From Mastigocoleus testarum BC008 (lineage in GTDB: Bacteria; Cyanobacteriota; Cyanobacteriia; Cyanobacteriales; Nostocaceae), in NCBI RefSeq assembly GCF_001456025.1, contig NZ_LMTZ01000096.1:1-64000 (forward strand): DNA of 64,000 nt. The letters run 5' to 3'. The notes beneath the pieces are model-generated. The model searched no databases. It had not been told where the DNA came from and was given only the letters and a program-made list of their open reading frames with translations. Position 1 is the first letter of the stretch. The number at the start of each line of letters is the position of its first letter. Below are positions 4,086 through 62,304 of this stretch, piece by piece. A program made the translations under genes and the position numbers.

Positions 4086-4104
4086 GCGTAGGTAAGTCCT
4101 GTGG

Positions 4105-17256: not shown

Positions 17257-18447
17257 CTAAAGCTCAATCTTGCCTTTATCGTCGCAGTTTTCCATTGTAG
17301 AATTTACCGAATCTATATCTACTGAATCTATCTCCCGGTCAGAATTTAAAGAATTTAAGTTTGTAGTTAAAATAGCTTCTGCTTCCAGCTTTGGAGCCAA
17401 GTAAAGATTTTCTAATAAGACGGCAATTCCAGCCACCCAAGGGGGAACAACGATCGCACCAACAATACCTAACACTTGTGTTCCTCCTAATACACCTAAA
17501 AGCTGATATAAAGGATGGACTCTTACCGAAGAACCTACTAGTAAAGGATCCAGTACGTAAGTTTCTACATTTTGGATAACTACAAACAACAGTAATACCC
17601 ACAGGAAAGTAAAACCGCTTTGGGGAATAGCGACAATTAAAGCTGGGATCGCACCTAATACTGGACCAATAAATGGGATCAAATTGGTGAATGCAGCAAT
17701 TACCCCCAATGCTAAAGCAAACTCTGATAACCCCAAAATTCCTAAGCCTGCAGTAATTGCTACACCCAAAATTGCCGACACGACTACTCGACCTTGAATA
17801 TAACCACCCATCCGACGGGAAATAGGCGTAACTTGTGCCGCTAAGCGTTCGTTCCAAGGATAAGGAAACAGAGATACTAAACCTTCAATCAAGCTTTTGC
17901 TACCAGCCACCATATAGCCGGAAGTAATCAAAACTAAAATTAAACCTAAGAATATATTGATTACTCCACCTAAAACGCCAAAAGTTACTCCAAAAGAACG
18001 TGATAGTACCCTTTGAGTCGAACGAAATAACCAATTAACCAATGCTTGAACATCTTGGGTCTCAAAGAATTTTTCAATTGAGTCTGCTTCAGTGATCCCA
18101 ATTCTTGCTGCAAAGTTTTCTGCAAGTGTTCCCAAGCTGTCTAAATATCCCGGAAGTTTATTTGCTAGGCGTTGTATTTGGACTGCAACACTCGGACCAA
18201 TAATTAATCCCGCACCGATTAAAACCGCAATTAAACCTAGGTATACAACAATTACGCCCAACCAACGGGGCAAATGTAATCTTTTTTCTGCTGTGTCAAC
18301 TATTGGTGCGATCGCGGATGCAAAGACAATCGCAACCATTAGGATTAACAGCAAACTCCGTAATTGCCACAGTAAAATAACTAAAAAAAAGGTGGCAATT
18401 ACCAACACAATATTAATTAAGGGAATTGGATTGTGCTTTTGGGACAT
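17257..18447 (-). CDS. AI-2E family transporter (PerM/UPF0118)
   Basis: Polytopic membrane protein of about 8 TM helices. The N-terminal pattern LLLILMVAIVFASAIAPIVD is typical of the AI-2E family. Confidence 0.8.
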   Translation of the reverse strand: MSQKHNPIPLINIVLVIATFFLVILLWQLRSLLLILMVAIVFASAIAPIVDTAEKRLHLPRWLGVIVVYLGLIAVLIGAGLIIGPSVAVQIQRLANKLPGYLDSLGTLAENFAARIGITEADSIEKFFETQDVQALVNWLFRSTQRVLSRSFGVTFGVLGGVINIFLGLILVLITSGYMVAGSKSLIEGLVSLFPYPWNERLAAQVTPISRRMGGYIQGRVVVSAILGVAITAGLGILGLSEFALALGVIAAFTNLIPFIGPVLGAIPALIVAIPQSGFTFLWVLLLFVVIQNVETYVLDPLLVGSSVRVHPLYQLLGVLGGTQVLGIVGAIVVPPWVAGIAVLLENLYLAPKLEAEAILTTNLNSLNSDREIDSVDIDSVNSTMENCDDKGKIEL

Positions 18448-18451
18448 GATA

Positions 18452-18494
18452 TCAGTTGTCAGTTATCAGTTATCAGTTATCAGTTGTCAGTTAA
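18452..18494. repeat. STRR-type heptamer tandem repeat (TCAGTTA/TCAGTTG, about 6 units)
   Basis: Direct reading gives atcagttgtcagttatcagttatcagttatcagttgtcagttaat. Confidence 0.85.
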
Positions 18495-18662
18495 TAGCTA
18501 ACGCCGCGCCTTTACAGGCTACAGTTAATACGCTATGTACACTTACTTACCCGCAATTCCTGCGGTACGCTGTAGCTGCGCTACCTCCAGATCCACCAGC
18601 TGCTAACGCGCACGCTGTGCTAACAGATATCAATTTTTTACTATTATTAACATTCAACCGCT

Positions 18663-18725
18663 CACTGTTAACAGTTAACTGTTCACTGTTAACTGTTAAC
18701 TGTTAGCTGTTAACTGTCAACTGTT
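18663..18725. repeat. STRR-type heptamer tandem repeat (AACTGTT, about 9 units), near-reverse-complement of the 18452 array
   Basis: cactgttaacagttaactgttcactgttaactgttaactgttagctgttaactgtcaactgtt. Abuts the cysS stop codon. Confidence 0.85.
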
Positions 18726-18727
18726 CC

Positions 18728-20206
18728 CTAACTACGATGCCAACGGGTACCTTCTTTACTATCAATTAGTGCAACACCTTGGGCTTGTAATTGATCCCGA
18801 ATGCGATCTGCTTGGGCAAAGTCTTTTGCTGTTCTAGCTTCTTTTCTGCGCTGAATTAGTTCCTCGATGTCAGCATCACTTAAAACATTGCTATTATTAT
18901 TGCCACTTTCAGTATTGTTGACCTCATTAGTTGTTGCTACAGACTCAGCTTCCAAACCTAAAACTCCGGCTAAAGTAACCAGAGTTTGCCATTGCTGCTT
19001 TAGTTTTTCTGACGCAGTTAAAGTTTTACCTTCGTGAACGATAATATTACCTTCACGACCCAAGTCTTTGGCTAACTCAAATAATATGACTAAGCCACCA
19101 GGAAAATTAAAGTCATTATCAACTGTTTCTTTGAATCTTTCTACAGCTTCTGATATTGGAGATGAAGTATTTTCTTCTTTCCAACCTAGTTTTTTCCCAT
19201 AGCGCTCGCCAAAAATTAAACCTTCCTTAAGAGTGTGCCAGCCATTAGTTGCTCCCGCAATTGCCCGATCGCTAAAATCGATGGGTTTCCGATATTGGGT
19301 TTGCAATACCAATAACCTTAGAGCCATTGAATCTACACCCTTATCTAACAATTCTCGAATTGTAATGAAATTCCCCAAAGATTTGGACATTTTTTCCCCG
19401 TTCACCTTCACCATTCCGTTGTGCATCCAGTAACGAGATAAATCTTGTCCTGTCACCGCTTCAGATTGAGCAATTTCATTTTCATGGTGAGGGAAAATTA
19501 AATCTTCACCACCTGCATGAATATCAATGGTGTCACCCAGGCGATCGCGCACCATTGCCGAACATTCTATATGCCATCCCGGACGACCTTTACCCCAAGG
19601 TGATTCCCAAGCCGGTTCTCCCTCTTTTGCAGCTTTCCATAAAGCAAAATCAAATGGGTCTTTCTTCTTCTGATACTCAGTATTTTTGACATCCACCCGT
19701 TCGCTAGCACCTGCTTGTAAATCTTCTAACTTGCGTCCGGATAGTTTGCCATAATCTGAAAATTGTCTTACGGCATAATAAACATCACCTTCGGAAGGGT
19801 AAGCATAACCTTTATGTTCCAAATCGTGAATTAAACGCTGAATACCATTCATGGTGTGAGTTGCACGGGGATACTCATCAGCTTCCTTGACATTCAGGCG
19901 CGCCATATCCTCAAAGTAAGCGTCGATATATTTTTCGGCAACAGCTTTCATCGAGGAATCTTCTTTTCTAGCGCGATTAAGAATTTTGTCATCAATATCA
20001 GTAAAATTCTGGACGTAACGTACCTGATAACCACGAAAATCAAGATAGCGACGAACAACATCCCATACGATACAAGCCCTAGCATGACCCAAATGACAGT
20101 AATCATAAACTGTCACACCACAGTAATACATCTTTACCTTTCCAGGTTCTACTGTCTCAAATGCCTCTTGGCGACGGGTCAAGGAGTTGTAAACGCTAAG
20201 ACTCAT
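18728..20206 (-). CDS. cysS: cysteine--tRNA ligase
   Basis: HLGH (HIGH) and KMSKSLGN (KMSKS) class I motifs. The N-terminus MSLSVYNSLTRRQE..KMYYCGVTVYDYCHLGHAR matches CysS. Confidence 0.9.
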   Translation of the reverse strand: MSLSVYNSLTRRQEAFETVEPGKVKMYYCGVTVYDYCHLGHARACIVWDVVRRYLDFRGYQVRYVQNFTDIDDKILNRARKEDSSMKAVAEKYIDAYFEDMARLNVKEADEYPRATHTMNGIQRLIHDLEHKGYAYPSEGDVYYAVRQFSDYGKLSGRKLEDLQAGASERVDVKNTEYQKKKDPFDFALWKAAKEGEPAWESPWGKGRPGWHIECSAMVRDRLGDTIDIHAGGEDLIFPHHENEIAQSEAVTGQDLSRYWMHNGMVKVNGEKMSKSLGNFITIRELLDKGVDSMALRLLVLQTQYRKPIDFSDRAIAGATNGWHTLKEGLIFGERYGKKLGWKEENTSSPISEAVERFKETVDNDFNFPGGLVILFELAKDLGREGNIIVHEGKTLTASEKLKQQWQTLVTLAGVLGLEAESVATTNEVNNTESGNNNSNVLSDADIEELIQRRKEARTAKDFAQADRIRDQLQAQGVALIDSKEGTRWHRS

Positions 20207-47537: not shown

Positions 47538-48737
47538 TTAAACAAACTTTTGACTGAACTCTTGGAGTAAATCTACTCTTCCTTTACGCAACATTGCTGG
47601 GTCTAATCTTTCAGTAGTGTTACAAGTCATCAAAACCACTAATCTTTGTCGCATTTGTATGCCAGAATGATCAATAACACTCTGGTATAGAGTTCCATCA
47701 AGTAAACTCAAAATATGCTCTGTTTTATTACTATATTGTGCTACTTCACTAGCGCGATCTTGAGCTAAATTATCTGCTTCGTTGATAATGAGACAAATTC
47801 TTTCTAAGTAAGATGGTGGAACAAAGTTGGAAATAGCATCATGATCCAAGATGAAGATAACATAACCCAAAGGTGCAAGGATTTCTTTCGCAACAGCTTG
47901 AGTCCAAGCTGTTTTCCCCGTCCCAGGTTTTCCGTGTACCAGAACAGCTAACTGGTTTTGATTAAGAATTGCTTGCTGTACTGAGTCAGTAAAAGTTTGG
48001 ATATTTGCTCCAAAAGTTTTGATGGGGAATTCACTATGAATTTTTCCCACACGACTTTGGTATCCACTCAGCATCACAGCTAAGTCGTAGGTTGCTTTAT
48101 TGATTAGTGGCTGTATATCTTTCGCCATTAAGGTATATTGTCTTCGACCTCTGTCATAGGGATCGATTTGGAGCCAAACATCATGTTGAGACCAATAAGC
48201 GTACACACTGTTGACAACATCCAAACGCTCCCAACCATTAAATTTTTCTACAGGAAAATAAAAGTCACGTTCTAAATAATATTGGGTAATAACATCCGGA
48301 CAACCTAGTAAATCTAAAACTCTGAATACAGCAATCTCCTGGAGACGGTTGAGGACATAGTCAATTGGAATACTATTACGGCTTACAAACTGAACTATGG
48401 GAGTCTCAGTGCTTAGAATATCTTTGTAACGATAGTCCGGCGATAAAGGTTCTGGTGTAATGTAATTCCAAAATTTTTCAACTTCATAACGCGTATCTTC
48501 AGAGAAAATATTTAATAAGTTTGCCCACCAAGCATAATTATTTCTACCTAAGTTTTCTCCAACACGACTTGCTAAATTCAAACTTTTTTGAGTTAACTCT
48601 TGCGTGTCTTGATGAAATAATTGCCACAAAAAATCCCAATCAAATTCACGATTAAATGGTCTCCAACCATTAGCAAGTAGGCTAGGTTGATTTTTGTTTC
48701 GATAGTCGTCACTTTTACCAAAATAATCAAATCCCAT
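47538..48737 (-). CDS. AAA-family ATPase with unassigned 230-aa N-terminal domain
   Basis: Walker A GKPGTGKT, Walker B LIINEAD, second region of homology/Arg finger MLRKGRVD. The N-terminal domain is Trp-rich and carries no known motif. Confidence 0.65.
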   Translation of the reverse strand: MGFDYFGKSDDYRNKNQPSLLANGWRPFNREFDWDFLWQLFHQDTQELTQKSLNLASRVGENLGRNNYAWWANLLNIFSEDTRYEVEKFWNYITPEPLSPDYRYKDILSTETPIVQFVSRNSIPIDYVLNRLQEIAVFRVLDLLGCPDVITQYYLERDFYFPVEKFNGWERLDVVNSVYAYWSQHDVWLQIDPYDRGRRQYTLMAKDIQPLINKATYDLAVMLSGYQSRVGKIHSEFPIKTFGANIQTFTDSVQQAILNQNQLAVLVHGKPGTGKTAWTQAVAKEILAPLGYVIFILDHDAISNFVPPSYLERICLIINEADNLAQDRASEVAQYSNKTEHILSLLDGTLYQSVIDHSGIQMRQRLVVLMTCNTTERLDPAMLRKGRVDLLQEFSQKFV

Positions 48738-52034: not shown

Positions 52035-52107
52035 TTAGATGATTTATTTGTAATGACGACTATAGCGGTTTCTATTTGAATCAAATACATTTTCATATTC
52101 CCACTCT

Positions 52108-52157
52108 GTAGAGACGTTGCATGTATTCTGTAGAGACGTTGCATGCAACGTCTCTAC
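52108..52157. repeat. palindromic dispersed element, one partial plus one full copy (GTAGAGACGTTGCATGCAACGTCTCTAC)
   Basis: gtagagacgttgcatg tattct gtagagacgttgcatgcaacgtctctac. The same 28-mer occurs in-frame inside the giant CDS at about 57586. Confidence 0.8.
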
Positions 52158-52213
52158 GGGATTTATCTATTTACAAATCAAATATGATTGCTACAACACC
52201 GAGCAAGACCCAC

Positions 52214-52381
52214 TGGGAGCATCTCAATTTTTAAAATTTACCGAGAATATAGCTTGTCATTGCGAATGCAGCGAAGCAGAATGAAGCAATCGCAACATCT
52301 AGAATTTGTGATTGCTGAGGACGCGCTCCGCGAACGCTTCATTTCATTACGCTCGCAATGACAAAATTTGAGATGCTCCCA
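52214..52381. mobile_element. MITE-like imperfect palindromic element of about 170 bp with 13-bp terminal inverted repeats
   Basis: TIRs are GGGAGCATCTCAA ... TTGAGATGCTCCC. Internal arms are mutually complementary (cttgtcattgcgaatgcagcgaagc ... gcttcatttcattacgctcgcaatgacaa). The CGCAATGACA motif is shared with repeats at about 4040 and 54950-55060. Confidence 0.6.
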
Positions 52382-52473: not shown

Positions 52474-55400
52474 ATGACTGCATTTTCCTGCCACCGCCCC
52501 AAGGTTGCTCCCATTTGGGTTTTCTTGGTTACTTTTTTATTAATTATTTCTTTGTCCTTACCCTCGGTTAGCGCTCAAGAAGAAAAGCCAAAACCGCCGA
52601 AAGAATGGGAAATGAAAGGTATAGTAGCAGCGCTAAAAGACCCTTATGCAGTAGTAAGGCTGGAAGCTGCAAATAGATTAGGAACATATAAATTAGACCA
52701 TCCCAAAAACCAAATTCCCAACTATAAAGAAGTTGAGAATCTATTGCTTGAACAGTTATCACCTCCAGATAAGGAAGATAAAAAAGAAAAGAACTTTTCC
52801 CGTAGAGCTGCAGCAACAGCACTGGGGAATATAAAAGCGAAAGAATTTGCACCCCAAATTGCCCTACTCCTTAAAGATTCTGACTCGGATGTGCGTAATT
52901 CTGCAGCAACAGCACTGGGGAATATGAAAGCGAAAGAATTTGCACCCCAAATTGCCCTACTCCTTAAAGATTCTGACTCGGATGTGCGTAATTCCGCAGC
53001 AACAGCACTGGGGAATATGAAAGCGAAAGAAATTGCACCCCAAATTGCCCTACTCCTTAAAAGTTCTGAGTCTTCTGTGCGTAATTCCGCAGCAACAGCA
53101 CTGGGGAATATGAAAGCGAAAGAAATTGCACCCCAAATTGCCCTACTCCTTAAAGATTCTGACTCGGACGTGCGTAATTCCGCAGCAACAGCACTGGGGA
53201 ATATGAAAGCGAAAGAATTTGCACCCCAAATTGCCCTACTCCTTAAAGATTCTCAGTTTTATGTGCGTAATTCCGCAGCAACAGCACTGGGGGAGATGAA
53301 AGCGAAAGAATTTGCACCCCAAATTGCCCTACTTCTTAAAGATTCTAAGTCTTCTGTGCGTAATTCCGCAGCAACAGCACTGGGGGAGATGAAAGCGAAA
53401 GAAATTGCACCCCAAATTACCCTACTCCTTAAAGATTCTGAGTCTTCTGTGCGTTATTTCGCAGCAACAATACTGGGGAATATGAAAGCGAAAGAAATTG
53501 CACCCCAAATTGCCCTACTCCTTAAAAGTTCTGAGTCTTCTGTGCGTTATTCCGCAGCAAGAGCACTGGGGGAGATGAAAGCGAAAGAATTTGCACCCCA
53601 AATTGCCCTACTCCTTAAAGATTCTCAGTCTTCTGTGCGTTATTTCGCAGCAACAGCACTGGTGCAGATGAAAGCGAAAAAATTTGCACCCCAAATTGCC
53701 CTACTCCTTAAAGATTCTGAGTCTTCTGCGCGTAATTCTGCAGCAACAGCACTGGGGAATATGAAAGCGAAAGAATTTGCGCCCCAAATTGCCCTACTCC
53801 TTAAAGATTCTGAGTCTTCTGTGCGTAATTCCGCAGCAACAGCACTGGGGAATATGAAAGCGAAAGAATTTGCACCCCAAATTGCCCTACTCCTTAAAGA
53901 TTCTCAGTTTTATGTGCGTAATTCCGCAGCAACAGCACTGGTGCAGATGAAAGCGAAAGAATTTGCACCCCAAATTGCCCTACTTCTTAAAGATTCTAAG
54001 TCTTCTGTGCGTAATTCCGCAGCAACAGCACTGGGGGAGATGAAAGCGAAAGAAATTGCACCCCAAATTACCCTACTCCTTAAAGATTCTGACTCTTTTG
54101 TGCGTGATTTCGCAGCAAGAGCACTACCAAAGTTAGAAAAACAAGGTTTATCGGTCACTGTGCAAATTCTGAATGCAGTGCATTATTATCCTTCAGAAAT
54201 TAATCGATTGAGATTTTTAGCCCATTTTATCGGTGGTGGAGAGCAAGATGTAGAAACTCTAATGAAATGGATTGGTAAACCCAAAGTTAAAACTACACCA
54301 AATGATTTAACTGTTGCTCAAGGCAGGAAAATCATGAAATTATTTGAACGAAGTTGGAAACTGTGTGATTCCCTACCAGACTTACAACGGGAATTAGCAC
54401 GACAGATTGCTAGGGTTTCCAAAAAAGTTTCTTGGGAAGCATGGGACATCAATTTACTTCAACGTCACCATAAAAACCTTAAAGATGGCAGATCTCACTA
54501 TGCTGACACTGTGCATAGTGTTATTAATGATCTGGAATTTTGGAAATGGTTTTTTATTGCCAGAAATATTATCCTGATTCACCTTGCGATTTGGCTTACC
54601 CTGATTCTTCTTTACCCCAAATTTACTCCAGTTCTTGCACCTTTGTTATGGAATCCTTGGCTGAGACGAATTCTTGGTTTTGGTTATATTGGCTTACTGC
54701 TAACTTTGGTTCCCTGGTTCCGTGAAAGATTGTTACAACCATTTAAACCTTTGCTGTTAGCAGATGCACGATTAGATAATTTCGTTGAGCAAGGTTATTT
54801 TGGAGAATCTTATGTGAAGGTTCCACCGGGTAGTGTTCAAATTTTAAATTCAAGTCGGGATTTACGCAGGAATAAGAGATTTAGAGTTATTGGGAGCATG
54901 GGAAGTAATCACAGGGTCGAAATCTTAGGGGGATTGCTTTACTACGCTGGCGCTCCGTTCGCAATGACGAGTAGGTTTTTGAATCGCAAGGTCCATATGC
55001 TAAGGGGATTGCTTCACTACACTGGCGCTCCACTAGCCCGCAGCAAGCTGAACGCAATGACAGTAAATAACTATTCCCCAAAATATATTACGTCAAAAGT
55101 TCAACCAATTACTCAAGCAATCCCAAGTCTTCAAGGACAAATTGTCTTAGAAGGTGAATCTGGCTTGGGTAAATCAATGTTTCTGCGCCATTTAGCGAAT
55201 AATTCCCAGCGTATTCTTGTTTATCTCCCCGCTCAAAAGTGTGATAAAGGGGTAATCAAGGCAATTTCTGCCAAATTAAAAGAACAAGTAAATGATTTCA
55301 AGTTCCTAAAAAACCTGATTTACAATGGAGCCTTAGATATCTGCATCGACGGACTCAACGAAGTTACAGCAGACACTCGAGCAAAAATTTCCCAGTTTGC

Positions 55401-58113
55401 AGAAAGCTATTTCCGGGGCAATATAATTATGACAACCCAGCCCCTAGACTGGATACCGCCTTCCACTGCGAAGAAATACGAATTGCAGCCTTTAGAACGC
55501 GAACAGATTGAGCAATTTTTGCTGTTGCGTGGTGAGACGATTGGGGATTGGAGACTGGGGACTGGAGAAGACAAAGGAGTTAACGCATCATTTACACAAT
55601 ATGACCAAGCTTGTTCAAACTATCTTGCGGAAGCTTTCAACGAACAACAATCCCCAGAAGATTTAGCAGCAACCAAGCGAATTCTTTCTAACCCAATGGA
55701 TTTAACTTTGGTTGCCCTGATGCTATCACAAGGACAGCAACCAAATTTATTCCGCCTGCAAGAACAACAATATCAACTGATGGCGGCTGAATATCAGCGA
55801 GAATATCAGCGGGAATTTCCTTTAAAAAGGTTTTCTGAAGCTGTTTATCAAATGCGATTGTATGACGAAACCATTATACCCAGCAAGGAATTTGGTTCGG
55901 AATTAGTATGCTTGGGAAATGAAAAATATAAGATGGTTATCAGTCGTCAGTGGGAGAGTGACAAAGGGGAACCAGAGAAAACCTGGTATTTTCGCCACGA
56001 TAAAATTATGGAATTCTTCTTGGTACAAAACTTTCGCGGTGCAGATAAAGCAGTTCAAGAACGGATTCAAAAACACATTAGTGACCCTAGGTTTCGCGGC
56101 GTTTATTTATTATTAGCTAATTTACTTCCTTTAGATTATGCAGTTGAACTGCGAGAAAGAATTATCGATTATGCTGCTAACAGCAAAGACCATACATTAA
56201 GCGATAAGTTTGTTCAGTTATTACAGTTGCGCTTACCCCTAAAATGGACGCAAGGTGCAAAAGTAAAGTCATTATTACAACAACACGAACAAAAAACCCA
56301 GTATTTAGATTTAGTAGCAAAATTTTTAGAACAGGTCGATGCGACGGTCAAACGGGAGCAAAAACTATACCTGACCATTGAAAATATCGAAAGCAGTTTG
56401 AGGAATTATGCGCCTTTCCCGGTTGCGATCGCGATCGATACCCCAACAGATGAAGATATTAGTCATTTGGTAAAACTTTCCCAACAATTGAAAGCAGAAT
56501 CGACAGCAGAAACAGAAATAACAACAGAGCGATCGCCCAAAGCTGGCTTACTAATCTACAAAATTCCTCCAGATCCTGCAGCCAGAATGGAAATTGCTAA
56601 GGTGCGGTTGCGGGATAATTTTCTCTTAATTCCCATTCCCATCACATCAGTGGAAAAAGCCTTAAGCGATAAAGACAATTGTATTGGCTTGCTGGATGAG
56701 TATATTGATCGATATCTCCAACATGCTGACTTCTTTGATGATCGCAATGCCATTACTGACACATTATCATTTTTCGGTCGTACAGAAATCTTACAACGCT
56801 TAGGAGAAGAACTACTAAGACATCAAGCATTAGGGCTTTTTGGATTGCGTAAATCAGGTAAAACCTCAGTTTTGATCCAATTGGGTTTTATGTTGCGGGA
56901 ATATCCAATCATACATATTGATTTGCAAAGCTATGGCGGTTCTCGTTACGCTGTGGATTTATTTAACAAGATTATTGATGGTTTATCTAGCTTAGAAAGT
57001 GAAACTCCCTTTCCCCAATTTGCACCATTTCCTCGAGAGCAACCTGCTGCTGAGTTAACAACTGAATTTATTCAACGGGTGAATGAATATGTCAGTGTGA
57101 TCCAAAACCAAACAAAATATCACAACCAAAAGAAATATAAACTACCCATCCCGTGCTTTTTAGACGAAGTAGAAAGAATTATTCCCACACCAGAACATGA
57201 TCGCGAAAAAGCTGAAGAATTCAATGCTTTTTTTGGAGCGTTGCGAGTATTATGTCAAGAAAAGAAAATTTCATTACTGGTTGCTGACGTACATCCCGAT
57301 TGCAATCGGATTAATTCCTGGACGCAAGCAGGAGTTGCAACAAACCCAGTTTTTAGCTTCTTCAAAGAAATATTTTTACCACCTTTCTCAGAGGAAGAAA
57401 CCCAAGAGATGTTGGTAAATCTTGGTAAATTAATGGGTTTAGAGTTTGATGCAGCTACACCCCAACAAATCCATTACCAAAGTGGCGGACATCCCTTCGT
57501 TTCTCGTCAAATTGCCCGTTTTCTCACAAATAAAATTAAAGATCAATACAGTTCAGTTAAGAATTCTTTTGAAACAAATAACGCTGTAGAGACGTTGCAT
57601 GCAACGTCTCTACCAAGAAATTCAGGTTTATCTGAACCATATTTGATTAAAAATAAGCAGGACTTACCTCATCAAAACAATAACATGCTCATTGAGTGGG
57701 GAATGGTAGAAAAATATTTAAAGAAAACCTTAACCCAAAGAGGTCAGTTAAAAAATTATCTAGAAAAAAGTATTTGGGAAGATTTAGAGAAACGCAACTT
57801 TCAAGTTGCTATTGCTGTGCTGCAATGCATCGCCTGTAACGAAGATTCACATCGGAAAATAACACAAACAGCCTTATTTAACCAACTAAAAAGCCAATTT
57901 ACAACCAACCGGTTATTAAATGCTTGCAATTGGCTGATAAGTGTTGGATTGTTATATGAGGAGGAAGTTGAAGAACTAAAAGTGGAAGATTCAGAAATTC
58001 AAACCCAAGAAGCTCAAAGTAACGAACTTTACCATATCCGAATTCCTCTCTTATCAAGGTGGATCTACATGCAGATGACAGAAGAGGAAATTGAGCAATG
58101 TACGATTCCGTAG
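52474..58113 (+). CDS. giant multidomain protein: signal peptide, 14 HEAT(PBS-lyase-type) repeats, TM segments, NACHT-type STAND NTPase, second STAND-like P-loop ATPase module
   Basis: Signal-peptide-like MTAFSCHRPKVAPIWVFLVTFLLIISLSLPSVSA. 14 copies of a 31-aa repeat (AATALGNMKAKEFAPQIALLLKDSDSDVRNS). Hydrophobic helices at about aa 690-750. Walker A GESGLGKS and Walker B ICIDGLNEV (NACHT hhhDGhDE). NPMDLTLVALM and WYFRHDKIMEFFLVQ NACHT-like motifs. A second module runs FFGRTEILQRL...GLRKSGKTS...GGHPFVSRQIARFL. Confidence 0.8.
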   Translation: MTAFSCHRPKVAPIWVFLVTFLLIISLSLPSVSAQEEKPKPPKEWEMKGIVAALKDPYAVVRLEAANRLGTYKLDHPKNQIPNYKEVENLLLEQLSPPDKEDKKEKNFSRRAAATALGNIKAKEFAPQIALLLKDSDSDVRNSAATALGNMKAKEFAPQIALLLKDSDSDVRNSAATALGNMKAKEIAPQIALLLKSSESSVRNSAATALGNMKAKEIAPQIALLLKDSDSDVRNSAATALGNMKAKEFAPQIALLLKDSQFYVRNSAATALGEMKAKEFAPQIALLLKDSKSSVRNSAATALGEMKAKEIAPQITLLLKDSESSVRYFAATILGNMKAKEIAPQIALLLKSSESSVRYSAARALGEMKAKEFAPQIALLLKDSQSSVRYFAATALVQMKAKKFAPQIALLLKDSESSARNSAATALGNMKAKEFAPQIALLLKDSESSVRNSAATALGNMKAKEFAPQIALLLKDSQFYVRNSAATALVQMKAKEFAPQIALLLKDSKSSVRNSAATALGEMKAKEIAPQITLLLKDSDSFVRDFAARALPKLEKQGLSVTVQILNAVHYYPSEINRLRFLAHFIGGGEQDVETLMKWIGKPKVKTTPNDLTVAQGRKIMKLFERSWKLCDSLPDLQRELARQIARVSKKVSWEAWDINLLQRHHKNLKDGRSHYADTVHSVINDLEFWKWFFIARNIILIHLAIWLTLILLYPKFTPVLAPLLWNPWLRRILGFGYIGLLLTLVPWFRERLLQPFKPLLLADARLDNFVEQGYFGESYVKVPPGSVQILNSSRDLRRNKRFRVIGSMGSNHRVEILGGLLYYAGAPFAMTSRFLNRKVHMLRGLLHYTGAPLARSKLNAMTVNNYSPKYITSKVQPITQAIPSLQGQIVLEGESGLGKSMFLRHLANNSQRILVYLPAQKCDKGVIKAISAKLKEQVNDFKFLKNLIYNGALDICIDGLNEVTADTRAKISQFAESYFRGNIIMTTQPLDWIPPSTAKKYELQPLEREQIEQFLLLRGETIGDWRLGTGEDKGVNASFTQYDQACSNYLAEAFNEQQSPEDLAATKRILSNPMDLTLVALMLSQGQQPNLFRLQEQQYQLMAAEYQREYQREFPLKRFSEAVYQMRLYDETIIPSKEFGSELVCLGNEKYKMVISRQWESDKGEPEKTWYFRHDKIMEFFLVQNFRGADKAVQERIQKHISDPRFRGVYLLLANLLPLDYAVELRERIIDYAANSKDHTLSDKFVQLLQLRLPLKWTQGAKVKSLLQQHEQKTQYLDLVAKFLEQVDATVKREQKLYLTIENIESSLRNYAPFPVAIAIDTPTDEDISHLVKLSQQLKAESTAETEITTERSPKAGLLIYKIPPDPAARMEIAKVRLRDNFLLIPIPITSVEKALSDKDNCIGLLDEYIDRYLQHADFFDDRNAITDTLSFFGRTEILQRLGEELLRHQALGLFGLRKSGKTSVLIQLGFMLREYPIIHIDLQSYGGSRYAVDLFNKIIDGLSSLESETPFPQFAPFPREQPAAELTTEFIQRVNEYVSVIQNQTKYHNQKKYKLPIPCFLDEVERIIPTPEHDREKAEEFNAFFGALRVLCQEKKISLLVADVHPDCNRINSWTQAGVATNPVFSFFKEIFLPPFSEEETQEMLVNLGKLMGLEFDAATPQQIHYQSGGHPFVSRQIARFLTNKIKDQYSSVKNSFETNNAVETLHATSLPRNSGLSEPYLIKNKQDLPHQNNNMLIEWGMVEKYLKKTLTQRGQLKNYLEKSIWEDLEKRNFQVAIAVLQCIACNEDSHRKITQTALFNQLKSQFTTNRLLNACNWLISVGLLYEEEVEELKVEDSEIQTQEAQSNELYHIRIPLLSRWIYMQMTEEEIEQCTIP
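52810..54115 (+). repeat. 93-bp tandem repeat array (about 14 near-identical units) encoding the HEAT repeats
   Basis: Units differ at only a few nt. There is a higher-order duplication: units 5-7 resemble units 12-14, DSQFYVRNS...DSKSSVRNS...ITLLLK. Confidence 0.85.
54890..55075 (+). repeat. two tandem in-frame copies of a MITE-arm-like segment embedded in the giant CDS
   Basis: GGGATTGCTTtACTACgCTGGCGCTCCgttCGCAATGACg and GGGATTGCTTcACTACaCTGGCGCTCCa...CGCAATGACa, related to the right arm of the 52214-52381 element. Translated as GLLYYAGAPFAMTS / GLLHYTGAPLARSKLNAMT. Confidence 0.5.
57586..57613 (+). repeat. 28-nt perfect palindrome GTAGAGACGTTGCATGCAACGTCTCTAC inserted in-frame in the giant CDS (encodes VETLHATSL)
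   Basis: Exact copy of the intergenic palindrome at about 52130-52157. Confidence 0.8.
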
Positions 58114-60536
58114 GAGAACGTCCTTTTGACAATTACCGCACCCCCATAACAGAACCCTCCTACTTCTTTGGACGTAGTGAATTAATTCATACCATGCTCA
58201 AATTCCCCTTTCAGGTGCGGATACTCTTAGGTGGAAGACGTTTGGGTAAAACCAGCGCCTTACGTGCTGTCGAATGGAACTTGCTCGATCCTAATAATAA
58301 TCCCGATCGCAATCCCAATTCTAAATATTTTCGTCGTGCTTTCCCGGTATTAATCGATCTCAAGCTAGAACAACCTAAAGACTTAGATAATCTACGTTAT
58401 ATCCTGATCGCCAGACTCCGAGAAGCAATGGAACGCTGGCGAGAAATTCCTGTAACATACATTAACCAAATGTACCCCGAGTTTCTCAATCAAGTTAAGG
58501 GTGCTGAAGTTACTTTGAATTTCCTCTCAAGTTTAGGTATTAATTGTAACAGTAATAATTCCGATACCGAAAAACGGTTAAACAACGATAACTTTCGACT
58601 CGCTTTCTTAAAAACAAAAGAAGAACTACGAAAACAAAAAGAATTAAACTTTCAAGGCGTCTGCTTCCTGATTGATGGTGCTGAATTCATTGTCCGTCAA
58701 ACTTGGGCTACTGATGCTTGGTCTTATCTACGGGGTTTGAAAGATACCGACATCGCCATCAAATCAGCTTTAGGTTTGTTACTTTCCGGTTACCGAGACT
58801 TAAAAGAATATCAGCAACGCGTCGGTTCGCCATTATTGAATATAGCAGAAATTGAATGGTTAACCACATTAAGTGAAGAAGATACCAGAAAATTGGTATG
58901 TGACCGCATTTCGCACATGTTGCAGACTTATGACACCGAAAAAGAAAAAATTTTTTTGAGTGAAGACGCGATCGCACAAATTATCGAATGGTCTGGATGT
59001 CATCCCTACTTGATCCAACAATTGCTCAACATGATTTTTGACTCCAACCAGCAATTTGAGCTTGAGCAGCAATGCTTAGATACTCATCTCATCAACAAAT
59101 TATTACAGCATCACGATAAAGATTTCTCTTCCTGGTGGAACACCGAACACCTCTCTGGTTGCTTTAGTGAAGACGAACGCAAAATTTACTGTACCTTAAT
59201 CGAACAACGCCAAGCGACCCCCAAGGATTTAGCAAAAAATACAAGTTTCAGCCGATTTAAAGTATCAGAAGCATTAGAAGTAATGGCTGGTACCGGTGTA
59301 ATTCACCTACTAGATGATGAATCTTACATATTAGGTTCTCGTCTATTTCAAGAATGGGTAAAAGATTTAACTTCTAATACTTTAAGTCCTAATACATCTG
59401 AGTCAGACTCTGAAAAGCAATCGCAACAAGTTTTATTAGATAAACAATTATGTAAACAAAATCAAATTCAAAATCAAACTCAAATTAATTACCAGGATTT
59501 TCAAATCATAGTTGATAAAAATCATTATATTCGTGCTTCCTCAGAACAAGGGGAAGTTAAAAACCAATTATTATTAGATATCAATAAAATAAAACTGACA
59601 TTAAAACTAGTCGAACTCAATCAGACAGATACAGAACTGCTCAAAGCACTAGGTCACGAGCTTTACCAAGCACTCTTTCCCGATAAAATTAACGCTCGAT
59701 TCCACGCTACATTAGCAAGCGCACAAACAAAAAAAGAAAGCGTCCGCTTACGTCTAATATTTGAATCGCCCGAATTAGCTTCTCTACCTTGGGAATTCCT
59801 CTACGACGAAGATACCAACACTTTTTTAGGAAACAACACCGAAACCGTTCTTTCTCGTTATATCGATCTTCCCTTAAGAAAAAGCGATCTAAAAGCCGTT
59901 AGTTTACCTCTGAAAGTCCTATTAGTCATTTCCACCCCCACTGACTTAGCCACATTAGACGTTGCTGGAGAAGAAAAACTAATTCAAGAAGCCTTAAAAA
60001 CACACATAGAAACAAAAAACATTGAGTTAGATATCTTACAAACAGCAACGAGACGAGAAATCCAGCAAAAGCTAAATGAGAAGCATTACGATGTGTTTCA
60101 CTTTATCGGTCATGGTGAATTTGAGAATAACAAAGGTTACATCATTCTTGTAGATGAAGCAAGAAAAGCGAAATATATGGATGATGAAAACTTCGCTAAC
60201 TTCTTTTTAGGTAGTCATAATGTGGGATTAGTTATTCTAAATTCCTGTCAAGGAGCAAAAGTAGCTTCAAATCAAGCGATGAGGGGTACAGCACCAAACC
60301 TAGTGCGTCGGGGAATACCCGCAGTAATAGCAATGCAGTATTCTATTTTCGACAACACAGCAAAACTTTTTGCAGACGAATTTTATCGTACTTTAGCACT
60401 AGGTTATCCCATAGATGCAGCAATCCAGAAAACTCGGAATGCAATTTCTATGGAATGTGGACTCAATACACGGGACTTTGCAACACCAGTGCTGTACATG
60501 CGAGCCAAAGACGGAATTATTTTAAGTGGATTATGA
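58098..60536 (+). CDS. STAND-like P-loop ATPase fused to a CHAT (caspase-like) protease domain
   Basis: FFGRSELIHTML...GGRRLGKTS (Walker A), FLIDGAEF (Walker B), GCHPYLIQQL (GxP). The C-terminal CHAT carries a His/Cys dyad in FHFIGHGEF and LVILNSCQGAK. Its ATG overlaps the upstream gene by 16 nt, and GAGGAAA lies 7 nt upstream. Confidence 0.8.
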   Translation: MYDSVGERPFDNYRTPITEPSYFFGRSELIHTMLKFPFQVRILLGGRRLGKTSALRAVEWNLLDPNNNPDRNPNSKYFRRAFPVLIDLKLEQPKDLDNLRYILIARLREAMERWREIPVTYINQMYPEFLNQVKGAEVTLNFLSSLGINCNSNNSDTEKRLNNDNFRLAFLKTKEELRKQKELNFQGVCFLIDGAEFIVRQTWATDAWSYLRGLKDTDIAIKSALGLLLSGYRDLKEYQQRVGSPLLNIAEIEWLTTLSEEDTRKLVCDRISHMLQTYDTEKEKIFLSEDAIAQIIEWSGCHPYLIQQLLNMIFDSNQQFELEQQCLDTHLINKLLQHHDKDFSSWWNTEHLSGCFSEDERKIYCTLIEQRQATPKDLAKNTSFSRFKVSEALEVMAGTGVIHLLDDESYILGSRLFQEWVKDLTSNTLSPNTSESDSEKQSQQVLLDKQLCKQNQIQNQTQINYQDFQIIVDKNHYIRASSEQGEVKNQLLLDINKIKLTLKLVELNQTDTELLKALGHELYQALFPDKINARFHATLASAQTKKESVRLRLIFESPELASLPWEFLYDEDTNTFLGNNTETVLSRYIDLPLRKSDLKAVSLPLKVLLVISTPTDLATLDVAGEEKLIQEALKTHIETKNIELDILQTATRREIQQKLNEKHYDVFHFIGHGEFENNKGYIILVDEARKAKYMDDENFANFFLGSHNVGLVILNSCQGAKVASNQAMRGTAPNLVRRGIPAVIAMQYSIFDNTAKLFADEFYRTLALGYPIDAAIQKTRNAISMECGLNTRDFATPVLYMRAKDGIILSGL

Positions 60537-60549
60537 TTAAATACGGTTG

Positions 60550-60603
60550 GTAGAGACGTTGCAGAGGCTAACGCCGACGCCGCAGGCTCTGCAACGTCTC
60601 TAC
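60550..60603. repeat. palindromic dispersed element (GTAGAGACGTTGCAGAGGC...GCAGGCTCTGCAACGTCTCTAC), probable bidirectional terminator between the convergent CHAT gene and malQ
   Basis: A long-inverted-repeat variant of the 28-mer. A related partial copy lies at about 47425-47466. Confidence 0.7.
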
Positions 60604-60660
60604 ACGCCCAAAATAATCATGGTTCAACCTTAACTGAACTGTATTGGATTATGAGTCTGT

Positions 60661-60713: not shown

Positions 60714-60798
60714 TGTTAATCACCGTTAACTGTTAACTGTTAACTGATAATTGATAACTGTTAACTGATAACTGATAACTGATAACTGTTAACTGTTA
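60714..60798. repeat. STRR-type heptamer tandem array (AACTGTT/AACTGAT, about 11 units) overlapping the malQ stop codon
   Basis: ccgttaactgttaactgttaactgataattgataactgttaactgataactgataactgataactgttaactgttaactgtt. The final units encode the last codons and the TAA stop of malQ on the minus strand. Confidence 0.8.
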
Positions 60799-62304
60799 AC
60801 TGTTCTCAGGAGCGCGTCCAAATAAAACAGTCAGATTTTTCAGGCGATCGCTCAACTCTTCATTTAAAGCCTCAGCATAATAACGCCATTCCCAATTACC
60901 TTCACCCTTAGAAGGAACATTCATGCGTGCTTGAGTAGATAAACTCAAAATATCTTGTAAAGGAATAATCGCTTGATTCGCCACAGAACTTAAAGCTAGG
61001 CGAATTAAATCCCAATGAACCCCATCAGGACTAATGCTTCCTAAATAAAGCCATAGGTTACGTTTTTCCCAATCTGAAGCTGTATTGTACCAACCAATAC
61101 TTGTGTCATTATCGTGAGTTCCCGTGTAAATCACACAATTTTGGGGCACATTGAAAGGTAAATAAGGGTTAGTCGGGTCGGAACCAAAAGCAAACTGTAA
61201 AACTTTCATTCCCGGAAACTCGAATTTATCTCTCAATGCAAGTACTTCTGGGGTAATTGTTCCTAAATCTTCTGCTAGTACTGGTAATTTACCTAACTTT
61301 TGCCGGATAGTTTCAAATAATTCATCTCCTGGTGCTTTCACCCATTCCCCATTAACTGCAGTCTCTTCACCTTGGGGTACCGACCAAAACGCCTCAAATC
61401 CCCGAAAGTGATCGATGCGAATAATATCGACATAGTCAAGCATCGCTTCAAAGCGTTTTACCCACCAATCAAAATCTTGTTCTTGTAAAGCTTCCCAATC
61501 GTAAACGGGGTTACCCCACAATTGTCCGGTTTCGCTAAAGTAATCCGGTGGTACCCCAGCCATTTGTGCGGCTTCTCCTGTCTCTTCATCCAGAGAAAAA
61601 ATATCTCGATTTGCCCAGACATCAGCGCTATCATGTGCGACATAAATGGGAATATCACCGATAATGTTCACACCCCGTTCGTTAGCATAATTTTTCAGTT
61701 CCGACCACTGACGGAAAAATTCATACTGAACAAACTTGTAGTAAAAAATACTTTCAGATAATTCTTCTTGAACTTTTTGAATCGCTTCTGTCTCATGACG
61801 AGCAATCTCTGTTTCCCAAGTATGCCAGCTGGCACCTTCATTACGATCTTTTAGTGCCATGAATAAGGCAAAATCATCTAGCCAAGAAGACTTATCGCTG
61901 CAAAAATCGGCAAATTCTTGGTTTTTTTCTGGCGAAGCATGATGCTTAAAATTATTACAGGCTTTTTGTAATAAAGGGATTTTAGTATCCACAACTAATT
62001 CATAATCTACCCTATCTCCAGGAAATGCAGGTAGATTATCAAAATCTTCTTCTGTTAATAAACCCTCATCCTTTAACTTTTCAGGGCTAATTAAAAGGGG
62101 GTTACCAGCAATGGCAGAGTAGCACATATAAGGCGAATTACCATAACCTGTCGGTCCTAAAGGTAAAATCTGCCAGTATTGTTGATTACTTTGTTGCAGA
62201 AAATCGATGAAGCGATAAGCATCTGCACCTAAGTCGCCAATACCGAAGCGACTGGGGAAACAGGTAGGGTGAAGTAAAATTCCACTGGATCTAGGAAAAG
62301 GCAT
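60796..62304 (-). CDS. malQ: 4-alpha-glucanotransferase
   Basis: MPFPRSSGILLHPTCFPSRFGIGDLG N-terminus, GH77 catalytic regions (IIGDIPIYV, RIDHFRGF, VYTGTHDND). Confidence 0.85.
   Translation of the reverse strand: MPFPRSSGILLHPTCFPSRFGIGDLGADAYRFIDFLQQSNQQYWQILPLGPTGYGNSPYMCYSAIAGNPLLISPEKLKDEGLLTEEDFDNLPAFPGDRVDYELVVDTKIPLLQKACNNFKHHASPEKNQEFADFCSDKSSWLDDFALFMALKDRNEGASWHTWETEIARHETEAIQKVQEELSESIFYYKFVQYEFFRQWSELKNYANERGVNIIGDIPIYVAHDSADVWANRDIFSLDEETGEAAQMAGVPPDYFSETGQLWGNPVYDWEALQEQDFDWWVKRFEAMLDYVDIIRIDHFRGFEAFWSVPQGEETAVNGEWVKAPGDELFETIRQKLGKLPVLAEDLGTITPEVLALRDKFEFPGMKVLQFAFGSDPTNPYLPFNVPQNCVIYTGTHDNDTSIGWYNTASDWEKRNLWLYLGSISPDGVHWDLIRLALSSVANQAIIPLQDILSLSTQARMNVPSKGEGNWEWRYYAEALNEELSDRLKNLTVLFGRAPENS

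Follow-up and report, generated by a model that had tools for sequence, protein, structure and literature searches.

A candidate membrane-anchored, NLR-like two-gene module in the cyanobacterium Mastigocoleus testarum BC008

bNACHT proteins are NLR-related antiphage proteins that carry repeat-containing 'antigen receptor' domains, HEAT repeats among them (Kibby et al., 10.1101/2022.07.19.500537). NACHT domains are defined by a D[GAS]hDE Walker B motif, the bNACHT genes are enriched in multicellular cyanobacteria, and one category possesses transmembrane (TM) regions, for which a role in detecting signals from the membrane or periplasm has been proposed (Kibby et al., 10.1101/2022.07.19.500537). 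Multicellular bacteria also harbour the nSTAND1 conflict systems (Kaur et al. 2021, PMC8195603; Dore et al. 2024, PMC10907252).

In the window analysed here, a 64,000-nucleotide stretch of Mastigocoleus testarum BC008, two overlapping genes form a new combination of known parts. The original prediction considered this not to be a described system type, which holds for the exact combination, since PADLOC recognised no system in the gene pair and no published match was present in the literature searched; yet each part belongs to described STAND/CHAT conflict-system families. The genes and their predicted features are as follows.

52106..52365, strand not assigned: upstream intergenic dispersed repeats, namely the palindrome (52130-52157) with a partial copy (52106), plus a GTCATTGCGA...TCGCAATGAC element (about 52250-52365)
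52474..58113, + strand: gene 1 (1879 aa; KST66441.1, annotated 'HEAT repeat domain-containing protein / PBS lyase'), encoding a signal peptide, HEAT array, juxtamembrane domain, hydrophobic hairpin, NACHT-like NTPase, N-domain and nSTAND1-like ATPase
52474..52575, + strand: Sec-type signal peptide, aa 1-34, with n-region HRPK, a 19-aa hydrophobic core, and SVSA followed by QEE (hydropathy 2.51)
52612..54141, + strand: HEAT-repeat array of about 15 units, with a core of 14 near-identical 93-nt tandem repeats at 52810-54111
54142..54543, + strand: helical juxtamembrane domain (aa 557-690), a conserved feature of the HEAT-TM-NACHT family
54547..54723, + strand: conserved hydrophobic hairpin, with helix a at aa 692-714, a positive loop YPKF..WNPWLRR, and helix b at aa 733-750
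54920..55070, + strand: in-frame insertion of dispersed repeats into the linker that joins hairpin and NACHT, made up of two GGGATTGC...CGCAATGAC units
55081..56238, + strand: divergent NACHT-like STAND NTPase, aa 870-1255, with Walker A GESGLGKS (55153), Walker B IDGLNE (55339), TTQP, SNPMDLT, and the winged-helix motif WYFRHDKIxEFF
55542..55568, + strand: in-frame GGGGACT-type heptamer stretch in the NACHT helical region, aa ~1023-1032, encoding GDWRLGTGE
56257..56736, + strand: modA N-domain, aa 1262-1421, confidently modelled as alpha/beta (helix, three strands, helix, strand, helix, strand)
56737..58110, + strand: modA ATPase and winged helix, nSTAND1/ATPase_2-like, with Walker A GLRKSGKTS (56842), Walker B CFLDEVE (57154) and GGHPF (57484)
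57586..57613, + strand: in-frame copy of the 28-nt palindromic repeat, encoding part of a low-confidence modA loop (pLDDT <50 at model residues 451-474)
58098..60536, + strand: gene 2 (812 aa; KST66442.1, annotated 'CHAT domain-containing protein'), encoding the modB ATPase, winged helix, linker and CHAT protease
58098..59372, + strand: modB ATPase and winged helix, aa 1-425, a modA paralogue with Walker A GGRRLGKTS, Walker B FLIDGAEF and GCHPYL
59484..60533, + strand: CHAT caspase-like protease domain, with candidate catalytic residues His672 (60111-60113) and Cys717 (60246-60248)
60533..60620, strand not assigned: imperfect 37-nt inverted repeat of the GTAGAGACGTTGCA family, immediately 3' of the gene 2 stop codon

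Both ORFs and their 16-nt overlap are present as first predicted, the quoted motifs of the two proteins are all in place, and the order of the domains matches. Gene 2 is translationally coupled to gene 1 through this overlap. The genes surrounding the pair are housekeeping genes (rluB-like, rodZ, malQ, NUDIX and ridA), with no phage or defence-island context among the neighbours examined. Across homologous loci the genomic context varies between genera, and the 3' flank differs even between two Mastigocoleus strains.

The C-terminal ATPase of gene 1, modA, carries the motifs FFGRTEIL (aa 1433), GLRKSGKTS (aa 1457) and GGHPFV (aa 1671) expected of the second STAND-like module claimed for this protein, although Pfam nSTAND1 (PF20703) scores only 22.6-24.5 bits on gene 1, just below the cut-off of 27.1; 18 of 24 modA members match this family. 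The N-domain that precedes it contains no invariant residues of catalytic look. For modB, the corresponding motifs are FFGRSEL (aa 23), GGRRLGKTS (aa 45) and GCHPYL (aa 300) of gene 2, and the best Foldseek match is 2qen (E=5e-9), followed by ORC/Cdc6, Roq1 and Avs3. The proposal that the two modules share an ATPase type is borne out by hhalign, which aligns them over 344 columns (97.8% probability, E=7e-13).

A scan with a modB profile, in which most loci were cyanobacterial, found a modA-bearing ORF directly upstream of modB in about 50 of 61 loci, often overlapping it; gene 2-type ATPases almost always adjoin a gene 1-type partner. Some of the homologous loci are split or frameshifted (for instance, L004, L005, L035, L056 and L062). 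The pair is widely kept in filamentous cyanobacteria, and many loci encode HEAT-TM-modA together with modB but no NACHT, as in Cylindrospermum stagnale PCC 7417. The conserved unit is the modA-modB gene pair; gene 2 had been paired with the NACHT, and its obligate partner is instead modA. Paralogy, adjacency and gene overlap suggest that modA and modB may also interact physically. The fusion partners of modA vary from genome to genome and include HEAT, TIR, CHAT, caspase, WD40, pentapeptide, cyclase, KAP/ATPase_2, NACHT and EAD8 domains, while those of modB are CHAT or TIR, a modularity typical of conflict systems.

In the case of the first NTPase of gene 1, the motifs GESGLGKS (aa 894), ICIDGLNEV (aa 956), NPMDLTL (aa 1073) and WYFRHDK (aa 1171), together with matches of the family profile to the NACHT of NLRC4 (E=2.4e-5) and to the winged-helix region of NLRP14 (E~9e-3), indicate a NACHT-like protein. 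The assignment as a NACHT proper is less secure, as Pfam NACHT matches just the P-loop, at 18.7 bits where 26.7 are required, and the Walker B is DGLNE rather than the NACHT-defining D[GAS]hDE; the domain is best regarded as a divergent relative. The HEAT-TM-NACHT protein is also a large stand-alone family, with no partner nearby in Nostoc punctiforme, for example, and the NACHT module, found in heterocystous cyanobacteria, is an add-on.

At the other end of the protein, where about 14 HEAT repeats had been predicted, there are about 15 units (Pfam HEAT_2, E=3.9e-60), with 14.2 copies of the 93-nt unit at 52810-54125 (92% matches). Substitutions cluster at six hypervariable positions of the repeat (7, 13, 25, 27, 30 and 31), and the between-repeat pN/pS is 1.93, a ratio that compares repeats of one gene and is not a formal test. 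In the Tolypothrix orthologue, positions 25 and 27 are again the most variable, and the between-repeat pN/pS is 0.61. The juxtamembrane domain matched no Pfam family. In the sister strain Mastigocoleus sp. MO_188.B34, the ectodomain is completely different despite ~93% identity elsewhere. DNA identity is 93% across the NACHT, modA, gene 2 and the rodZ flank and 88% across the signal peptide and hairpin, whereas nucleotide comparison found no similarity over the BC008 HEAT array and juxtamembrane domain, and the juxtamembrane domains of the two strains share only 40-43% protein identity; the repeat insertion at 54920-55070 is likewise without alignment. A putative sensor role for the HEAT array gains support from the hypervariable positions, from this ectodomain swap, and from NACHT-less relatives that consist of signal peptide, HEAT, one TM and modA.

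Whether such a sensor faces outwards depends on the hydrophobic segments. The signal peptide segment spans aa 11-29, and the helices predicted at about aa 690-750 correspond to a strong segment at aa 695-713 and a weaker one at aa 728-746. The latter form a hairpin, W.xH..FW..LIF.YPKSPQIQAIFFWNPWVRRI.GLGYVGF.LTWVPFLR.KLF.PFK, that recurs throughout the family and, NTPase motifs aside, is its most conserved stretch. If both hairpin helices span the membrane behind a signal peptide, the NACHT would end up outside the cell together with the HEAT array, an arrangement that cannot be squared with a cytoplasmic NTPase below an exported array; if the outside-in model is right, just one of these segments spans. 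Alternatively, all soluble domains may be cytoplasmic, with the N-terminal segment and hairpin forming a three-helix anchor whose N-terminus is outside, and sensing being intracellular or at the inner membrane face. This arrangement, which we consider rather unlikely, would suit two helices of similar length joined by a short loop, placing HEAT array and NACHT on the same side, and HEAT/PBS-lyase-type repeats are usually cytoplasmic. The conserved hairpin could then itself be the effector, for instance by membrane disruption on oligomerisation, and it would then make sense that a protease is dispensable in most relatives; the stand-alone HEAT-TM-NACHT proteins and most pairs lack an enzyme effector. 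Against it, the family N-tail is positive (K+R 2.95 versus D+E 0.59 in 78 representatives) and the printed N-termini end in classical AXA cleavage motifs; the strong positive charge of the loop between the helices (K+R 3.4, D+E 0.2) argues that this loop is cytoplasmic; and most of the 16 NACHT-less loci examined encode an N-terminal hydrophobic signal/anchor segment, HEAT, and a single strong TM ~35 aa before modA, forcing the array outside. The predicted outside-in topology, with an exported HEAT array, gains support from the N-termini and the NACHT-less relatives, and the original claim of an extracytoplasmic sensor coupled to a cytoplasmic NACHT would hold with a single spanning hairpin helix.

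The CHAT domain of gene 2 is well supported (Pfam CHAT, E=9.1e-32; its 111 bits exceed the cut-off of 24). Its motifs HFIGHG (aa 668) and LNSCQGA (aa 714) align with HFIGHG and LNAC of the solved chain 8tl0, and the His/Cys dyad, as predicted, is intact and invariant in seven orthologues. The CHAT partner is not a constant of the architecture, however, being present in only about six loci and replaced by TIR in one relative. Most orthologous pairs, including that of the 1935-aa Tolypothrix orthologue of gene 1, have a ~400-aa modB without protease; since they possess no recognisable effector, protease activation cannot be the general output.

Effector-less pairs with a TrmB-like winged helix (21 of 25 modB members) are suggestive of a transmembrane signalling or developmental regulator, in which an envelope-sensing STAND switch acts through the modB winged helix or limited CHAT proteolysis rather than in immunity or cell death. 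MalT and AfsR are STAND regulators, and the CHAT protease HetF acts in heterocyst differentiation and cell division. Among NCBIfam models, HetF fits the CHAT domain of gene 2 best (E=5.7e-39), the neighbourhood is housekeeping with rodZ adjacent, and filamentous cyanobacteria have widely kept the pair. We nevertheless regard this as improbable. HetF scores 134 bits where its cut-off is 1200, a winged helix is what STAND/ORC ATPases normally have as their third domain and is no sign of DNA binding, and genomic context shifts between genera and, 3' of the pair, between the two Mastigocoleus strains. The TIR, caspase, CHAT and EAD8 fusions, the ectodomain swap and the hypervariable repeats characterise conflict systems rather than conserved regulators.

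As predicted, mini-repeats border the locus and interrupt it in-frame, with three insertions in gene 1 and elements on both flanks. For instance, the 28-nt palindrome GTAGAGACGTTGCATGCAACGTCTCTAC occurs upstream (52130-52157) and inside gene 1 (57586-57613), and the Tolypothrix orthologue has a far longer insertion at the site of the GGGGACT-type heptamers. Such invasion, and the split or frameshifted homologues, could reflect a decaying, non-functional locus, but this is very improbable: both ORFs are unbroken over 8 kb, with NTPase motifs and protease dyad all intact, the insertions preserve frame and affect one linker and two loops, of which one belongs to the helical region and the other is modelled with low confidence, and both genes are kept in MO_188.B34 at ~93% DNA identity.

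We therefore favour, at about even confidence, a membrane-anchored NLR-like two-gene module of the conflict or cell-death type found in multicellular cyanobacteria. The function we infer from the sequences would begin with a HEAT array exported to the periplasm or thylakoid lumen, where it would bind a variable foreign or non-self ligand. The first hydrophobic helix would span the membrane, the second being re-entrant or at the cytoplasmic face, and ligand binding would free the cytoplasmic NTPases from autoinhibition. modA and modB may then form a hetero-oligomer, like a sensor/helper NLR pair, clustering CHAT domains such that the protease becomes active by induced proximity, as caspases do on apoptosomes and inflammasomes; through target cleavage the cell would stop growing, die or send a downstream signal. 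In CHAT-less relatives the modA-modB switch would drive another output, with TIR, caspase, CHAT or cyclase fused to modA in some.

Compared with described systems, the module shares with bNACHT proteins a P-loop NTPase followed by a winged helix, NACHT-like motifs, repeat domains, TM regions and an enrichment in multicellular cyanobacteria. Unlike in bNACHT, the NACHT lies C-terminal to the repeats, which carry a signal peptide; it has DGLNE as Walker B, does not reach the Pfam cut-off, and shares its polypeptide with a second STAND ATPase, while the coupled gene that follows encodes a third. With nSTAND1 systems the module shares a constant NTPase core (PF20703 in 18/24 modA members) and very variable effector or sensor fusions (TIR, caspase/CHAT, EAD8, repeats); neither an obligate paralogous partner such as modB, encoded by an overlapping gene, nor an N-terminus of signal peptide, HEAT and TM finds mention in the passages retrieved from PMC8195603 and PMC10907252. 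The archaeal ATPase_2 proteins (PF01637; PABY2304, PDB 2qen, and SSO1545, PDB 2fna) are single soluble proteins of unknown function, unlike this pair, and likeness in sequence is marginal (7/24 modA and 3/25 modB members matched).

By analogy, two paralogous STAND ATPases side by side, one bearing a caspase-fold protease, may be likened to eukaryotic paired sensor/helper NLRs and to the apoptosome and inflammasome, as may candidate-sensor repeats that combine high internal conservation with hypervariable positions. The Mastigocoleus proteins would differ in being membrane-anchored, with an extracytoplasmic repeat domain, and their protease is fused rather than recruited by death-fold adaptors. 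The CHAT domain is homologous to those of SAVED-CHAT and CRISPR/CBASS-type effectors (PDB 8tl0; PADLOC SAVED_CHAT), with HFIGHG and LN[SA]C aligned. Unlike SAVED-CHAT, the Mastigocoleus locus lacks nucleotide-sensor domains, SAVED included, as well as CRISPR and cyclase genes, and activation of its CHAT protease would come from the ATPase switch.

The module consists of two overlapping genes on the forward strand, lying exactly at the coordinates that the original prediction had given them and sharing 16 nt between the end of gene 1 and the start of gene 2:

52474-58113, forward strand: gene 1, 1879 aa (KST66441.1), annotated 'HEAT repeat domain-containing protein / PBS lyase'
58098-60536, forward strand: gene 2, 812 aa (KST66442.1), annotated 'CHAT domain-containing protein'

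Both accessions are M. testarum BC008 records, as established by exact look-up. The neighbours are housekeeping genes, with an rluB-like pseudouridine synthase and rodZ upstream, and malQ (opposite strand), a NUDIX hydrolase and ridA downstream. A 399-aa ORF (47538-48737, reverse strand) found ~4 kb upstream of the module and on the opposite strand carries a C-terminal AAA ATPase domain (E=3.4e-12), with weak similarity to AAA_16 and nSTAND5.

The HEAT repeats of gene 1 (Pfam, E=3.9e-60) are encoded by a 93-nt unit in 14.2 tandem copies with 92% matches. Differences between the 14 units fall mostly at six of the 31 positions (7, 13, 25, 27, 30 and 31), and pairwise codon differences are predominantly non-synonymous (468 vs 84 synonymous), with a pN/pS of 1.93 (pooled Nei-Gojobori, between repeats). 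In the Tolypothrix orthologue, repeat variability also peaks at positions 25 and 27, with a pN/pS of 0.61. Sensor repeats of fungal and other NLRs are known to combine strong internal conservation with hypervariability at a small number of positions. The pattern in the HEAT units resembles that of NLR sensor repeats, a likeness that is suggestive and not a formal test. Within the array (52810-54111), repeats 5-7 are closely similar to repeats 12-14 (DSQFY, DSKSS and ITLLL units), suggesting that a block of seven units (651 nt) was duplicated recently.

The window was compared with the sister strain Mastigocoleus sp. MO_188.B34, a metagenome-assembled genome. DNA identity is 93.4% in the rodZ flank and again across the NACHT-like module, the C-terminal ATPase cassette of gene 1 (modA) and gene 2 (55061-60532), and it is 88% both in the signal peptide region and in the hydrophobic hairpin that precedes the NACHT-like module. 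The HEAT array and juxtamembrane domain between them (52632-54501; positions 3273-4344 of the sister locus, L010) are not alignable in DNA. Six HEAT units, of another type, make up the array in the sister strain, and the juxtamembrane domains of the two strains are only 40-43% identical, whereas that of the window shares 61-65% identity with its counterparts in Nostoc sp. T09 and Tolypothrix. Neither the change of repeat type nor the divergent juxtamembrane domain can be put down to collapsed repeats in the metagenome assembly. The ectodomain has thus been exchanged as a whole by recombination beside unchanged cytoplasmic machinery, as would be expected for a receptor domain under diversifying pressure. 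On the 3' side of gene 2, the sister locus (L010 10504-17201) carries a dienelactone hydrolase, uvrA and a kinase-pentapeptide protein, in place of malQ, NUDIX and ridA, so that synteny between the two strains breaks off where the module ends on its 3' side.

Residues 1-34 of gene 1 resemble a Sec signal peptide, with a positive n-region, a 19-residue hydrophobic core (hydropathy 2.5) and the ending SVSA/QEE; its signal-peptide features are strong, and the family N-termini given as examples end in classical AXA motifs. After the ~130-aa juxtamembrane domain come two hydrophobic stretches, a strong one at aa 692-714 (helix a) and a weaker one at aa 733-750 (helix b), forming a hairpin that is strongly conserved in the family (W.xH..FW..LIF.YPKSPQIQAIFFWNPWVRRI.GLGYVGF.LTWVPFLR.KLF.PFK). 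Among 78 family representatives, K+R and D+E amount to 2.95 and 0.59 in the N-tail, 3.4 and 0.2 in the inter-helix loop, and 3.3 and 1.9 just after helix b. If the signal peptide were cleaved and both helices crossed the membrane, the NTPase would lie outside the cell, an arrangement that is not credible; with two hydrophobic segments, the odd count needed for a transmembrane receptor demands that one be non-spanning. An arrangement with the HEAT array outside, helix a spanning and helix b re-entrant or interfacial would fit all of these sequence features. One main rival is an all-cytoplasmic, membrane-tethered device with the hairpin as effector. Replacement of the HEAT array by an exclusively periplasmic or cytoplasmic domain, which could fix the topology, was found in none of seven long family members, all of which carry HEAT. 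The relatives lacking a NACHT-like module provide independent support for an exported array: in most of 16 such loci the protein begins with a hydrophobic signal or anchor segment, which in some resembles a lipobox, followed by HEAT repeats and exactly one strong transmembrane segment ~35 aa before the ATPase. For gene 1, we infer an exported HEAT array and activation of the module across the membrane.

The first NTPase of gene 1 had been predicted to be a NACHT. The match to Pfam NACHT (PF05729) scores 18.7 bits against a gathering cut-off of 26.7 and is confined to the P-loop (aa 890-910), and none of seven family representatives matches this profile at E<1e-4. The Walker B motif, DGLNE, keeps the Asp, the Gly and the final Glu, but at the first acidic position it has Asn, a residue invariant across 25 aligned members of the family, such that the motif differs at one residue from the NACHT signature D[GAS]hDE (Kibby et al., 10.1101/2022.07.19.500537). 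A single-sequence search against PDB sequences returned nothing useful, and a family profile was therefore needed. When a profile of the module built from 25 members was compared with 177,635 PDB sequences, the top matches were NLRC4 (E=2.4e-5, profile positions 5-117), with the alignment running through its NACHT from Walker A to sensor 1, and NLRP14, which aligned over the winged-helix region around an invariant FRHDK (FRHDKIxEFF; E~9e-3, positions 272-330). At the profile level, the similarity to proven NACHT modules thus includes a winged helix with the conserved His. We class aa 870-1255 as a divergent NACHT-like module.

An exhaustive search for this module yielded 740 cluster representatives (50% identity), nearly all of which consist of an N-terminal hydrophobic segment, HEAT repeats, the hairpin and the NTPase, and then stop. 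For instance, Nostoc punctiforme has a HEAT-hairpin-NACHT protein with no C-terminal extension and with no ATPase or CHAT partner nearby. Hundreds of HEAT-TM-NACHT-like proteins (e.g. family members P0114, P0053 and P0074) are publicly named 'PBS lyase' or 'HEAT repeat protein'. Their scores fall well short of the curated CpcE, CpeY and NblB cut-offs, which makes the lyase name a misannotation caused by the repeats. In the case of gene 1, identity as a phycobilin lyase or NblB was rejected as all three NCBIfam equivalog cut-offs were missed (CpcE, 104 bits vs 330; CpeY, 56 vs 600; NblB, 96 vs 300); these matches are to generic HEAT repeats, and by sequence its 'PBS lyase' label is a repeat-driven misnomer. 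Such names, which most of the stand-alone family bears, conceal a large NLR-like family.

The C-terminal ATPase of gene 1, modA, belongs with homologues that form a ~550-600-aa cassette of an alpha/beta N-domain and an ATPase. On the window protein (aa 1422-1879), nSTAND1 (PF20703) scores 24.5 bits against a cut-off of 27.1, over profile positions 12-216 and hence beyond the P-loop alone; the same profile matches 18 of 24 modA homologues at E<0.01 (best 1.6e-7), and many homologues have a precomputed PF20703 match. UvrA of the sister locus (L010 11576-14542) exceeds the nSTAND1 cut-off, at 28.4 bits, from its P-loop alone, which means that borderline scores against this profile need a check of profile coverage. 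The N-terminal ATPase of gene 2, modB, has homologues that are mostly free-standing 'ATP-binding proteins' of ~400 aa. Pairwise BLASTP aligned modA and modB over the P-loop region only, making profile-profile comparison necessary; this aligned 344 columns (probability 97.8%, E=7e-13), bearing out the claim that both genes carry the same ATPase type and indicating that modA and modB are paralogues. AlphaFold models of modA and modB (pLDDT 81.9 and 74.8) have a predicted STAND/ORC-type AAA+ fold, with P-loop core, helical lid and winged helix, the nearest structures being the archaeal ATPase_2 proteins PABY2304 and SSO1545, followed by plant NLR resistosomes, Cdc6/ORC, CED-4 and Avs3. A similarity between the NACHT-like and modA profiles (hhalign) was rejected as an artefact because the match covered only N-terminal extension columns from longer members of the modA alignment, with no window residues aligned. 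All three NTPases of the module retain intact Walker A and Walker B residues.

A scan with the modB profile, using one genome per species, gave 61 loci, onto whose ORFs the window modules were mapped. In ~50 of the 61, a modA-bearing ORF lies immediately upstream of modB, often overlapping it; the remainder are contig ends or fragments. The layouts of the pair are of three classes:

Class i: HEAT-hairpin-NACHT-modA with modB, ~30 loci in heterocystous genera
Class ii: signal peptide-HEAT-one TM-modA with modB, in Cylindrospermum, Stenomitos, Coleofasciculus, Okeania, Microcoleus, Lyngbya and Dapis
Class iii: other N-termini on modA, in various genomes, including CHAT-modA in Xenococcus

The predicted pairing is therefore sound for modB, which is nearly always beside a modA partner, but it does not extend to CHAT and NACHT, which are not part of every pair. 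A few non-cyanobacterial loci occur in Pyrinomonadaceae and Entotheonella, and protein databases contain further modA fusions, to TIR, caspase, WD40, pentapeptide repeats, cyclase, KAP/ATPase_2, canonical NACHT and EAD8. Some loci depart from the simple layout. In Cylindrospermum stagnale PCC 7417 (L006 3665-5113), a 482-aa protein with an N-terminal TM and no Pfam domain is encoded 6 nt upstream of the HEAT-TM-modA gene, and it may be a third component of the NACHT-less class. In Tildeniella nuda (L046 7959-12037), modB and modA are fused in that order in one protein, with a second modB after it, and in Scytonema sp. PCC 10023 (L058 2-3169) one ORF runs from NACHT into a truncated modA joined to modB.

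The C-terminal part of gene 2 (aa 463-812) matches CHAT (PF12770) with a score of 111.1 bits (cut-off 24; E=9.1e-32), covering profile positions 2-270 of 289. Its HFIGHG and LNSC motifs align with HFIGHG and LNAC of the solved chain 8tl0, and H668, H672 and C717 are invariant in seven CHAT-bearing orthologues, the candidate catalytic His/Cys dyad being H672 and C717. Identity as HetF (NF045509) was rejected, the match of 134 bits being limited to the CHAT domain and far from the equivalog cut-off of 1200. CHAT is found on modB only in Mastigocoleus, Calothrix rhizosoleniae, Rivularia, Richelia and two metagenomic or MAG contigs; one modB has TIR instead, and the 1935-aa Tolypothrix orthologue of gene 1 is accompanied by a 398-aa, protease-free modB.

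The module also contains dispersed repeats, which had been read as consistent with an accessory conflict locus. A 28-nt palindrome lies upstream at 52130 and again, in frame, at 57586, where it encodes a loop modelled with low confidence in modA. Two GGGATTGC...CGCAATGAC units, unalignable with MO_188.B34, are in frame between the hairpin and the NACHT-like module, the helical region of which has a GGGGACT heptamer stretch (with a larger insertion there in Tolypothrix), and an inverted repeat of related type is found after the stop codon of gene 2. In heterocystous cyanobacteria, small dispersed repeats are known to spread in frame. The in-frame and flanking repeats are present as predicted, but alone they do not mark a conflict locus. 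Arrays of 7-nt tandem repeats (GTTAACT / TTATCAG type), typical of heterocystous cyanobacteria, occur at 18435-18740 and at 60725-60804, the latter abutting or overlapping the 3' end of malQ (60796-62304, reverse strand).

The analysis establishes the domain architecture and its homologies, the conserved adjacency of modA and modB, intact catalytic motifs and a variable sensor. In the favoured interpretation, modA and modB would hetero-oligomerise, CHAT would be activated by induced proximity, and the module would act in defence or cell death; the other main rival is a non-immune signalling role. A bolder, rather doubtful reading of the whole is a prokaryotic 'outside-in' NLR, in which an exported, rapidly exchangeable HEAT receptor feeds a three-NTPase platform and a fused caspase-like protease. 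The receptor would recognise a non-self ligand outside the cell or in the periplasm; examples would be phage tail or receptor-binding proteins, factors from predators or competitors, and foreign filaments. It would signal directly across the membrane into the NACHT-like module and a sensor/helper-like pair of paralogous STAND ATPases. The platform would then activate the protease. No catalogued anti-phage system of PADLOC-DB v2.0.0 matches the module, nor does any Avs, bNACHT or other NTPase model, the only matches being to general HEAT models and, over its CHAT part, to SAVED_CHAT. The papers searched treat nSTAND1, CHAT effectors and those bacterial NACHTs that have TM or HEAT sensor regions in general terms, and neither the modA-modB pair nor the signal peptide-HEAT-TM-NACHT family is described in them. 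The suggestion of an undescribed system type thus applies, within these sources, to the assembly but not to its component classes.

If the outside-in reading is correct, the jobs of a surface pattern-recognition receptor and a cytosolic inflammasome, which are split in eukaryotes, would be united in a two-gene unit that is also a bacterial example of paired NLR-type ATPases. As the modA-modB pair was found in ~50 cyanobacterial and a few non-cyanobacterial genomes and has many alternative fused domains, it offers a comparative system for the input and output wiring of STAND switches. The bacterial STAND/NLR-like defences Avs and bNACHT sense intracellular ligands with a single protein, and obligate pairs of paralogous STAND ATPases are a layout so far linked to plant sensor/helper NLRs. 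Should the module work as proposed, bacteria would have, in addition, NLR-type receptors that span the membrane and carry an exported, swappable sensor, and would use obligate pairs of paralogous STAND ATPases.
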